From a virus: a DNA stretch of 64,000 nucleotides. The position numbers were made by a program, and so were the translations under genes. The stretch lies in UHGV virus genome UHGV-0171999; one strand, 5' to 3'. The notes beneath the pieces were generated by a model. That model saw only the letters and a list, made by a program, of their open reading frames with translations. It was not told the origin of the DNA and made no database searches. Positions 57,297 to 60,532 of the stretch are shown here, piece by piece (the stretch's first letter is position 1; each line of letters starts with the position of its first letter).

Positions 57297-57679
57297 AATT
57301 CAGCGACTTTTCACAAAGTGGAAAACCTTCAAAGGCAGATGAATACTTAGGTTTATTAATGGCTGCACAAGCTTATTTTCATTCTGCGCATTTTGAAACT
57401 AAAAGTTATGCTAGACACAAAGCATACGATTTTATTTTCTCTGAGTTGCCAGATTTGATTGATAAATTTGGTGAGCAATATTTGGGGTATTCTGGTAGAA
57501 AATACACACCTTCAATTCCAGATGCCAGTAAACTTCCTACCGACACAATTAAAATGATTGATCGTATACTAGACCAATCTAACAGCATTTATAAAGAAAT
57601 GCCTCCAGCCATTCAAAGCACGATAGATGATATTACTGGAATGTTTTACCAGAGTAAGTATCTTCTTTCCCTCGAATAA
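57293..57679 (+). CDS. rI.-1-like hypothetical protein
   Basis: 128 aa; start overlaps rI stop. Confidence 0.55.
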
Positions 57680-57684
57680 CATTA

Positions 57685-57706
57685 GTCTCCTTCGGGAGAC
57701 TTTTTT
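57685..57706 (+). terminator. rho-independent terminator
   Basis: GTCTCC-TTCG-GGAGAC hairpin followed by TTTTTT. Confidence 0.7.
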
Positions 57707-57716
57707 CATTTTACCG

Positions 57717-57746
57717 GTTTACTTTCCATTTGAGCTGTGATACTAT
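57717..57746 (+). promoter_or_regulatory. T4-type early promoter
   Basis: -35 GTTTAC at 57717-57722, 18 nt spacer, -10 TACTAT at 57741-57746. Confidence 0.6.
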
Positions 57747-57774
57747 ACAACCATCGGATAAAGAGGAGAACATC

Positions 57775-57963
57775 ATGAAAATTGAAGCACTTAATCAAGA
57801 AGGAAATATCTACGTCATCATTAATGGTGATTTTTTCGTCGACATGGATGAAGTTACTAGTGAAGAACTTGTAGAACTTCTTAAGAAACGTTATGATATG
57901 TGTGATGAAGCTGCAACTCACATGGCGTGTGCAATATTCTCTCTTTCATATGTGGTGGAATAA
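57775..57963 (+). CDS. hypothetical small protein
   Basis: 62 aa from ATG at 57775 with AGAGGAG RBS; ORF-track start 57730 is TTG. Confidence 0.55.
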
Positions 57964-58166
57964 TGATTAGTATCGAACAAGCAGATAAAATTAAAGAATT
58001 GGTAGCTTTAATTCGCAAAGCAGATGAGGAACTTAGTGACTTTGCTTGGTTTTCGGCAGGCATTGCAAATAAAGGCGCTGAAGAACTTGAAGCTAAAGTT
58101 GATAATGCTGTAGAAGCTTTAGATATGTTTCTTGATGAAATTATCGATCATAATACGAGAGTTTAA
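57963..58166 (+). CDS. hypothetical small acidic protein
   Basis: 67 aa from ATG at 57963 overlapping upstream stop (TAATG). Confidence 0.5.
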   Translation: MISIEQADKIKELVALIRKADEELSDFAWFSAGIANKGAEELEAKVDNAVEALDMFLDEIIDHNTRV

Positions 58167-58168
58167 GT

Positions 58169-58516
58169 ATGCTGACACGCGAACAGTTTGAAAAAATCAT
58201 TAAATTAGTACGTGATGTTGAAATAGATTCATATCAATTAGCAGTTGAGCATTGTGAAGGATACTCATACGATGGTATAGAAGCAGCTAAAAAGGATTTG
58301 GATAAATCCAAAGCTAAGTTAGTTCAATATCTTGAAATGATTAGGTGGACTGAAAAGCAGATGTTTTTAATGAAGCTAATTGAAGAATATGCTAATGCAG
58401 TTTCTGACTATGAGTATTCTGCTCGAGAAAGAGGTACAGCTTTCGCAAAGGAAGAAATGAAAATCATGGTTGATGCTCACACAAAGCTTCAGAATTTTAT
58501 TGAAAACGTCATTTAA
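58169..58516 (+). CDS. hypothetical protein
   Basis: 115 aa ORF with ATG. Confidence 0.55.
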   Translation: MLTREQFEKIIKLVRDVEIDSYQLAVEHCEGYSYDGIEAAKKDLDKSKAKLVQYLEMIRWTEKQMFLMKLIEEYANAVSDYEYSARERGTAFAKEEMKIMVDAHTKLQNFIENVI

Positions 58517-58518
58517 TG

Positions 58519-58549
58519 GTTTACAAGTTGGCAAGGTTATGGTATAGTA
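58519..58549 (+). promoter_or_regulatory. T4-type early promoter
   Basis: -35 GTTTAC at 58519-58524, 19 nt spacer, -10 TATAGT at 58544-58549. Confidence 0.5.
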
Positions 58550-58576
58550 ATCTTGTCAACTGCCAAGGAGAAGAGA

Positions 58577-58681
58577 ATGAAAGTTTTGTTTGTTGTGTAT
58601 GTGATGATTCAATATTATCACCCGATGTTTACTTATAATCTGGTGAACAACATTATTGATATTATTCAAAGGAGTATGTAA
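58577..58681 (+). CDS. 34-aa hydrophobic micro-ORF
   Basis: Strong AAGGAG RBS; MKVLFVVYVMIQYYHPMFTYNLVNNIIDIIQRSM. Confidence 0.3.
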   Translation: MKVLFVVYVMIQYYHPMFTYNLVNNIIDIIQRSM

Positions 58682-58741
58682 TGACAAATGAACAAGCTTT
58701 TAAGTTAAGAGAATTAATTGAAACTTTAATTGGTGAATAAT

Positions 58742-59008
58742 GTGAGCTTTCCGAAATTAGAAGTAGGTGATTTAGTCTTAACAAAATTGTGGAATGATAC
58801 TCAATCAGTAGAAATCTGCCAATATCGTGGAGCAACAGGTAATTTGATGTACACGATTTATAATCCAGAAATTTTGTTAGAGTGTCATTTGGAACGCTTT
58901 ATAAAAGATACTGATAGTATGCCTTATAGTGTATCGATTGTACGTAAATCTAATACGAAGGAATACTCTAAAATTTTAGAACAAATTCATGCCAATAAAA
59001 AGGATTAA
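58742..59008 (+). CDS. hypothetical protein lacking an in-frame ATG (candidate GTG start)
   Basis: ORF-track 58730..59008 starts at TTG; candidate GTG at 58742 with GGTGA RBS; alternatively fused by frameshift to the 19-aa ORF at 58681..58740. Confidence 0.4.
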   Translation: MSFPKLEVGDLVLTKLWNDTQSVEICQYRGATGNLMYTIYNPEILLECHLERFIKDTDSMPYSVSIVRKSNTKEYSKILEQIHANKKD

Positions 59009-59009
59009 T

Positions 59010-59540
59010 ATGAAACGATTAGTATTAGAAGTTAGTCCGCTTTTTGGTGAATTGGCTATAGAAAAAGTAAATAACATGTATCGTTTGACGCAAGAAGACG
59101 ATATGCTATATTTTACGCCTAGTGAAATCATTCATTTAACCCAAATTGAATATCCTTATACCGATAAAATAGTAAGCATTAATGATGAGCATAAAATTCA
59201 TTTTTATTCTTCATGTCCAGGATTTAATATTAAAAGTGAGTCGATGTGTTTATCAGTTATCCATTGGGATAGTTTTATAGATAAGATTAAATATTTTTAT
59301 TATTCTAATGAAAGAAAACATAATTTAAAATGGTTTAAAAATTGCAATGCTATTATTACTAACGCTTGTAATCAAAATTATGAAACTGTTTTAGATGTAT
59401 CAAAATGCTATGAAGAGGGAGATGTCATAACTATTCGTCAATCGGTAAATGATGTTAATGTTGTTGTATTAAACAAAGAAGAAGCTGTTTTATTAAAGAC
59501 TTATCTTGATTCTGTCATTCCAACTATGGTTTCAAAGTGA
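59010..59540 (+). CDS. hypothetical protein, paralog of the following gene
   Basis: 176 aa from ATG at 59010 with AAGGA RBS (ORF-track start 58989); C-terminus resembles the next ORF. Confidence 0.55.
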   Translation: MKRLVLEVSPLFGELAIEKVNNMYRLTQEDDMLYFTPSEIIHLTQIEYPYTDKIVSINDEHKIHFYSSCPGFNIKSESMCLSVIHWDSFIDKIKYFYYSNERKHNLKWFKNCNAIITNACNQNYETVLDVSKCYEEGDVITIRQSVNDVNVVVLNKEEAVLLKTYLDSVIPTMVSK

Positions 59541-59546
59541 GGAAAT

Positions 59547-60068
59547 ATGTTTATTTCAAGTGGAAGCGGTTTAATTCGTGTTGAATTTAAAAATGACATC
59601 TTCCTTATTCAAGGAGATGATATTATTAAAATGAGCTATGATGAAATCAAGAAAATTTGTCATGCTCTTGAAAGTCATGGAAAGGAAAATGCTACTATCG
59701 ATATAGGTGATTTATGGGTGACACTCTATGAAGTATCCGAAGGATTTAACATTGAAGATGAAAACAACATCTTAGCTATTGATAAAAGAAGCGATTTGTT
59801 TGACGTGTTAAAAGTTTATGAACAGTCAAACGATGGAAGAAAAGCTGCATTGATTTATCAAAAACCACATTCATGTGGAACTGCTTCAATCATTTCAGAT
59901 ATTGAAGATGAAACTGATACTTATATGTGTGTTTTAAAAGCTGGTGGTGACCGTCATCCGGATTTTATTTCTATTCGTCAAAACAATGGAGAAATTTCAT
60001 TATCAAAATCAGAAGCTGAAGCTATGATTAAGTATTTAACAACTGTTACACCTTCAATGAAAGGATAA
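59547..60068 (+). CDS. hypothetical protein, paralog of the preceding gene
   Basis: 173 aa; GAGG RBS; C-terminal IRQ...YL..V.P.M motif shared with the preceding ORF. Confidence 0.6.
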   Translation: MFISSGSGLIRVEFKNDIFLIQGDDIIKMSYDEIKKICHALESHGKENATIDIGDLWVTLYEVSEGFNIEDENNILAIDKRSDLFDVLKVYEQSNDGRKAALIYQKPHSCGTASIISDIEDETDTYMCVLKAGGDRHPDFISIRQNNGEISLSKSEAEAMIKYLTTVTPSMKG

Positions 60069-60070
60069 TT

Positions 60071-60532
60071 ATGATTATTAATGAAAGCTCTTGGCACTAT
60101 AAATTATTCAAAATGTTTAACGACGAATGGAAACGACCTAAGACACTGTGCGCGTATTTTTGGTCTATTGTTATCCCTACATTTTTCGTTTCTTTTTTCG
60201 GATGTACTATACTCGCAGGTCTAACTATCATCTGTGCAGAAATCATGCAGAAATGGCTTATTTTTGGTAGTTTATGGACTCTTATTCCAGCAGCATTTAT
60301 ACTTGCCATTTTGCTTGTTTTACTTATTATTGGTTCATTTGTTATTCCTGCACAACTACATGAAAAATATAAAGATTATAAATGGAAAAAGGATTATGCT
60401 TTACATGTAGAAAATATTGATAGGGCGTATAAAGGTTTACCTCCTATTCAACCCAAGAAATCTATTATCATCGAATTTTTAAAAGCGTGTAAAGCTAAAG
60501 TATGTCCTGTTATTGAATATAAGGCTGAATAA
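60071..60532 (+). CDS. membrane protein
   Basis: 153 aa; two long hydrophobic segments; AAGGA RBS. Confidence 0.6.
   Translation: MIINESSWHYKLFKMFNDEWKRPKTLCAYFWSIVIPTFFVSFFGCTILAGLTIICAEIMQKWLIFGSLWTLIPAAFILAILLVLLIIGSFVIPAQLHEKYKDYKWKKDYALHVENIDRAYKGLPPIQPKKSIIIEFLKACKAKVCPVIEYKAE

Follow-up and report, generated by a model that had tools for sequence, protein, structure and literature searches.

Positions 58577–59008 of the window, the whole 64,000-nt stretch of viral DNA that was analyzed (UHGV virus genome UHGV-0171999), contain two very short open reading frames, followed by a frame of 92 codons that lacks an ATG start. This arrangement raises the question of how translation of the third frame begins, and of whether the short frames that precede it encode proteins, regulate the downstream gene, or are joined to it. 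A first-pass annotation, whose coordinates proved exact to the base, had offered leader-peptide regulation, a frameshift or an indel as explanations. The reading we favor, to which we give a probability of about 90%, is that the region is one T4-type early unit comprising mobD.2, a 19-codon gene remnant, an independent 88-aa tudor-family gene started at GTG, and mobD.1, with the GTG being a point-mutant allele of an ATG start, and the deletion that left the remnant having taken place on the GTG background.

The region is the early region of a Tequatrovirus (T4-like) genome, and ∼500 Tequatrovirus genomes match it at 90–96% identity. The gene order in annotated relatives is tk, rI.1, rI, rI.-1, mobD.5, mobD.4, mobD.3, mobD.2a, mobD.2, two extra genes, and mobD.1 onward to nrdC.11, and the genes from tk to nrdC.11 all lie on the + strand of the window. 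T4 early promoters have a consensus composed of a GTTTAC -35-like element, a spacer of 17–18 nt, and TGn joined to a TATAAT-like -10. The site upstream of mobD.2 (58519–58548, + strand) fits this consensus, with GTTTAC (-35 region) at 58519–58524, an 18-nt spacer containing TG at 58540–58541, and TATAGT (-10) at 58543–58548. It scored 10/12 with an extended -10 in a promoter scan, was the top + strand site in 57500–60000, and is nearly identical in alignments with T4, ACG-C40, pSs-1 and others. Its fit to the consensus and its conservation in relatives lead us to infer that it is active as an early promoter. An early promoter predicted under mobD.2 in fPS-90 was also considered and rejected; it lies inside the gene, away from the upstream site, and falls below the scan threshold here. 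Further upstream, just past rI.-1, a GC-rich hairpin with a perfect 7-bp stem (AGTCTCCTTCGGGAGACT) and a T run behind it (57684–57701) is terminator-like on the + strand, and scores on the − strand too.

Each of the three ORFs in 58577–59008 belongs to a protein family (phrog_3515, PF24219, and PF24144, respectively), so they are not chance ORFs, and each gene start lies 0–1 nt from the preceding stop (TAATG, TAAtGTG, and TAAtATG). The last of these junctions leads into mobD.1 (59010–59540, + strand), a y05I-like gene matching PF24449 and PF24448 and annotated in ACG-C40 and T4, whose ATG is 1 nt past the stop of the tudor gene. Beyond it (59547–60532), where T4 carries the mobD HNH homing endonuclease ahead of nrdC.11, the window has instead a second y05I-like paralogue (59547–60068) and a 153-aa predicted membrane ORF (60071–60532), as in ACG-C40.

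The first of the short frames (58577–58681, + strand, ending in TAA 58679–58681) encodes a hydrophobic small protein of 34 aa, and its Shine-Dalgarno, AAGGAG (58565–58570, + strand), is located 6 nt before ATG 58577, with a duplex energy of −8.7 kcal/mol with the 3' end of 16S rRNA. The protein matched phrog_3515 with E = 2.1e-20 (residues 1–34 on profile positions 2–35 of 35), a gene labeled mobD.2 in T4 and ACG-C40. By tblastn, mobD.2 was detected in 825 phage records, 744 of them covering at least 80% of its length, with identities of 85–100% in Tequatrovirus and about 46–56% in Mosigvirus-, Karamvirus- and Klebsiella-infecting T4-like phages. The length of the ORF was constant at 34–35 codons across records, and its synteny was that of T4, with mobD.2a and the early promoter upstream, and mobD.1 downstream. 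On this conservation, the 34-aa ORF is the T4 gene mobD.2, a conserved protein-coding gene rather than a leader peptide. Literature searches on mobD.2, PF24144, DUF7438 and phage tudor returned no papers.

The second frame (58681–58740, + strand, TAA at 58738–58740) begins at an ATG that overlaps the mobD.2 stop (TAATG), and its Shine-Dalgarno, AAGGAG (58669–58674, + strand; −8.2 kcal/mol), lies within the mobD.2 coding sequence, 6 nt before the ATG. At the same ATG, a gene of 61 aa (MTSEQAFKLRELIETYSKAV...NLDSYIETLIGE) opens in ACG-C40, RB3, RB14, VIPECOOM01, Ec_YwIITB1 and an IMG/VR contig, and the full-length orthologue matches DUF7438 (PF24219) with 57.8 bits, and phrog_4859 as well. When the window was aligned with ACG-C40, VIPECOOM01, Ec_YwIITB1 and an IMG/VR locus (L004), it was found to lack exactly 126 bp (42 codons), in frame, such that codons 1–12 and 55–61 plus the stop are kept. 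The flanks of the deletion, ...GAATTA/ATTGAG... and ...TCTTAT/ATTGAA..., each contain an ATTGA microhomology, corresponding to two I-E-T motifs in the protein, and the breakpoint is ambiguous within this microhomology (junction 58716–58722, + strand); alignments to non-deleted genomes begin at query base 28, which is window position 58717. The junction is spanned by 14 GenBank records, representing 12 phages, namely pSs-1, KNP1, KNP5, KIT06, ESh16, ESh34, Ec_MI-02, PBM-1 and sb1-4. As the deletion is in frame, both the start and the stop of the remnant are those of the intact gene, the stop being 1 nt before the next gene. The complete DUF7438 domain (PF24219, about 57 residues) is absent from the 19-aa ORF, which, with 19 of 61 codons kept, cannot hold it. 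Read from these alignments, the 19-aa ORF is evidently the scar of a microhomology-mediated (ATTGA) in-frame deletion in the 61-aa DUF7438 gene, and it is most likely non-functional as a protein. An indel, one of the options in the first-pass annotation, thus accounts for the 19-aa ORF, whereas the missing ATG has another cause, a substitution described below.

The deleted gene is one of a tandem array of four DUF7438 paralogues (57927–58740; mobD.4, mobD.3, mobD.2a and the 61-aa gene), which share the N-terminal motif xxEQAxKhxELh and are interrupted by the promoter and mobD.2. Within this array, mobD.3 and mobD.2a are joined in frame at 58169–58516 by a deletion of 10 bp (AATAATGAAA in relatives; junction following position 58348), and the resulting 115-aa ORF includes two stretches of DUF7438. 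This deletion is absent from all 492 GenBank Tequatrovirus records, which align with a 10-nt gap, and it is either a private gene fusion or possibly an indel of sequencing or assembly. A small length difference was also seen in a record with the 126-bp deletion allele, that of Shigella phage sb1 (PQ666539.1, 58895–58981), which aligns over 87 nt versus 86 in the window, implying an indel of 1 nt close to either the junction or the start, perhaps a frameshift, perhaps an error of sequencing.

The third frame is open from TTG 58730 to TAA 59006–59008, hence the 92 aa given in the program-made list of ORFs, and its first in-frame ATG is codon 40 (codon 36 when counted from GTG 58742). The coding sequence is 88 codons rather than 92, and extends from GTG 58742 to 59008 on the + strand. 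Its product matches the Phage_tudor family (PF24144) with 137.4 bits (gathering cut-off 27 bits), with residues 1–87 on profile positions 1–87 of 90, and also matches phrog_3215. In all 12 IMG/VR orthologue loci (47–95% identity, in four upstream contexts), the codon aligned with GTG 58742 is ATG, followed by S/G-F-P-K-L-E, and 51 of 52 homologue cluster representatives, obtained from a search of 5.8 billion proteins, carry M[SG]FPKLEVGD, or a sequence close to it, from residue 1 onward. Because the 52 representatives are all 53–99 aa in length, there is no fused or N-terminally extended form of the protein among them, and the suggestion that the micro-ORF and the 92-aa ORF might prove to be fused in orthologues was not borne out. 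A Shine-Dalgarno, GGTGA (58732–58736, + strand), is placed 5 nt before GTG 58742, its duplex with 16S rRNA reaching −7.4 kcal/mol, and the same GGTGA is found in ATG-allele orthologues. The annotations of pSs-1 (RefSeq) and PBM-1 give exactly this GTG-started CDS of 267 nt. One of the starts considered in the first-pass annotation, GTG 58742 with a GGTGA ribosome binding site, is thus the position at which orthologues also start, mostly with ATG, and these orthologues constitute an independent gene with a conserved start, a finding that the annotation itself had named, for a GTG start, as one that would refute its reading.

The missing ATG is due to a single A-to-G substitution (TAATATGAG to TAATGTGAG). 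Three start-region haplotypes were found in Tequatrovirus: TAACATGGGC, in 113 of 136 records; TAATATGAGT, in an IMG/VR locus (L004); and TAATGTGAGC, in the window. The GTG haplotype is present exactly in 17 records and additionally in PBM-1, and thus in at least 18 GenBank records. Seven GTG records (VIPECOOM01-03, UGKSEcP1 and P2, ECp13, and Ec_YwIITB1) keep the full 61-aa gene, so the GTG is independent of the deletion, and the order of events that would most simply explain these alleles is that the 126-bp deletion arose on the GTG background. In the window and the six phages with the GTG allele that were examined, seven genomes in total, the tudor ORF was intact, and codon differences among GTG alleles were mostly synonymous (7 synonymous versus 3 non-synonymous in one comparison, and 9 versus 2 between pSs-1 and VIPECOOM01). 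The intact ORFs and mainly synonymous changes indicate continuing purifying selection, and hence that the gene is probably expressed. The gene is dispensable in the genus, since it is missing at this site from T4 and from about 70% of Tequatrovirus records. The A-to-G change that made the GTG also created an out-of-frame ATG-TGA (58740–58745, + strand; recognized from sequence only), a start followed directly by a stop, which lies 3 nt past GGTGA, shares this Shine-Dalgarno, and overlaps the GTG; it could compete with or modulate initiation. A contig from Logan accession ERR14786395 (L020, 701–720) carries a tudor allele with ACG at the canonical start (GGTGAATAACACGGGC), for which the gene caller fell back on a GTG 9 nt upstream; the allele was seen in a single contig, and may be a real loss of the start codon or an error.

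The placement of the start at GTG 58742 has to be weighed against two ways in which translation of this frame might begin closer to, or within, the 19-aa ORF. In the open frame, TTG 58730 and GTG 58733 are the start codons encountered first and would give proteins of 92 or 91 aa that overlap the end of the 19-aa ORF, and the GTG matching 58733 was chosen in the annotation of Ec_YwIITB1 and in a Logan gene call (P0001). However, neither codon is preceded by a Shine-Dalgarno (−0.9 kcal/mol), the downstream position is used by nearly all of the homologues described above, and the PF24144 profile starts at the residue encoded by GTG 58742; on the absent Shine-Dalgarno and the orthologue starts we rejected both codons, and consider an upstream start very unlikely. 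A programmed +1 frameshift near the stop of the 19-aa ORF, which would produce a fusion of ∼105 aa with a MTNEQAFKLRELIETLIG- N-terminus, draws on the fact that the tudor frame is +1 relative to this ORF, and on the SD-like GGTGA just before its UAA stop, features that the window shares with prfB-type +1 sites and that superficially echo them. The resemblance ends there, because the +1 frame is shut by TAA 58727–58729, leaving 11 nt for the shift within ATT GGT GAA TAA, the site itself (GGU GAA UAA U) has no slippery codon, as a P-site GAA cannot re-pair in the +1 frame (AAU), the spacing of the SD-like element is wrong, and the orthologues have an independent ATG. Moreover, non-deleted relatives have at this same junction a complete 61-aa gene followed by an ATG-started gene, an N-terminal extension is present in none of the 52 representatives, and in other phage lineages the tudor gene is preceded by unrelated sequence. 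Homologue lengths and N-termini, as well as the closed frame and the lack of a slippery codon, therefore contradict the +1 continuation raised in the first-pass annotation, and we regard a frameshift as extremely unlikely.

Two further explanations accept the tudor gene as a separate gene, and differ from our reading in what they make of the micro-ORFs and of the GTG. If the micro-ORFs were regulatory upstream ORFs that control the downstream gene by attenuation or ribosome stalling, one would point to the pair of tiny ORFs, each with a strong Shine-Dalgarno, shortly past a promoter, and to the tight stop-start spacing, which implies some translational coupling. Against this, mobD.2 is a protein of constant length in 825 records from several genera, in T4 the gene that follows it is another one (mobD.1), and the 19-aa ORF is the product of a recent deletion in a gene of a Pfam family. 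Neither a terminator/attenuator hairpin nor an Rfam leader was found, a scan of 58500–59100 detecting no terminator-like or attenuator site, and an Rfam search at E ≤ 1 giving no leader match beyond noise. The tudor gene also occurs without either micro-ORF in other lineages; no homologue of mobD.2 or DUF7438 was detected within up to 1.5 kb upstream of it in loci L005–L007 and L011–L014, and in L015 mobD.2 directly precedes it. With these absences, and with the 34-aa ORF being a conserved gene, the leader-peptide regulation proposed earlier is highly unlikely. The other explanation is that the GTG allele represents loss of the start codon, and that the tudor gene is silenced or weakly expressed and becoming a pseudogene, which would be in keeping with its absence from T4 and most Tequatroviruses, the existence of the ACG allele, the competition of the out-of-frame AUG-UGA for its Shine-Dalgarno, and the frequency with which gene callers skip it. 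Yet the ORF is intact in every GTG-allele genome examined, from several countries, with synonymous changes exceeding non-synonymous ones, and the allele has persisted whether or not the upstream deletion is present. Initiation at a GUG with a proper Shine-Dalgarno is, furthermore, ordinary in both E. coli and T4. The start-stop, the ACG allele and the dispensability of the gene in the genus make reduced expression or incipient loss a minor rival, which we consider unlikely.

According to the reading we favor, that of a single early unit with an independent GTG-started tudor gene, host RNA polymerase would transcribe the unit early from the GTTTAC/TGnTATAGT promoter, and ribosomes would translate mobD.2, the 19-codon stump, the tudor gene and mobD.1 serially. 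Initiation on the tudor gene would take place at GUG 58742 by means of its own GGUGA Shine-Dalgarno, 5 nt upstream, and would probably be aided by re-initiation after UAA 58738–58740, that is, by translational coupling, such that the stump, though likely to yield no functional protein, would still bring ribosomes to the tudor start. Two sequence features speak against this reading, in that initiation is weaker at GUG than at AUG, and that the out-of-frame AUG-UGA at 58740–58745 may compete for the Shine-Dalgarno. It is conceivable, but improbable, that the stump has been kept as a bridge ORF that delivers terminating ribosomes to a weakened GUG, with the AUG-UGA and the GUG tuning tudor expression down, and that the arrangement has evolved as a small translational rheostat, instead of combining a neutral scar with a neutral polymorphism.

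The genes and their arrangement were already known, the identical allele was present in GenBank, and the finding is the start-codon polymorphism together with the deletion remnant. The biological weight of this finding is small, and it illustrates the plasticity of the mobD/nrdC early region of T4-like phages, where genes are gained and lost, small deletions occur at microhomologies, and start codons drift. It is of some practical use for annotation, since several GenBank records omit the tudor gene or give it a wrong start on account of its GTG, and since the 19-codon ORF should be recognized as a deletion remnant and not as a new micro-gene. The annotation of GTG alleles is indeed inconsistent, with the tudor gene unannotated in KIT06 (L001) and VIPECOOM01 (L017), and 9 nt too long in Ec_YwIITB1 (L019). 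Two names in circulation in this region also look like name-transfer errors, namely helicase loader for the 61-aa DUF7438 gene (via phrog_4859), and molybdopterin-guanine dinucleotide biosynthesis protein MobD for mobD.1 and mobD.4.

Compared with known systems, the tudor protein of the window resembles the PF24144 family in its full-length match, and its confident AlphaFold2 model (pLDDT 88.6) predicts a five-stranded barrel with a C-terminal helix. This model bears a weak likeness to Tudor, PWWP, Sm and KOW-like folds of solved structure; Foldseek gave no match in the PDB at E ≤ 0.001, its weak matches (best E = 0.075) being SH3-like and including PHF1 Tudor, PWWP, Gemin6/7 and L21e, and a PDB profile search with the protein found nothing. 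The mobD.2 gene of T4 (NP_049712; phrog_3515) is like that of the window in its length of 34 aa, about 85% identity, common promoter, Shine-Dalgarno and place after mobD.2a. It differs in that it abuts or overlaps the mobD.1 start (TAATGATG), whereas the window has two extra gene slots in between, T4 having neither the DUF7438 gene nor the tudor gene. Phages of the ACG-C40, RB3 and RB14 type share with the window the order mobD.2, DUF7438, tudor, mobD.1, the stop-start junctions, and more than 93% DNA identity, but they contain the 126 bp of the 61-aa gene, and start the tudor gene with ATG where the window has GTG. In Shigella phage pSs-1 (NC_025829; gp115 / gp113), the sequence agrees with that of the window at all 86 bases over the junction of the deletion and the GTG start, and the tudor CDS is annotated with the same extent. 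The two differ by scattered substitutions elsewhere, and by mobD.3 and mobD.2a, which are separate in pSs-1 and fused in the window. Finally, the stop-start spacings that link the genes of the window (TAATG, TAAtGTG, and TAAtATG) are typical of translational coupling in T4.
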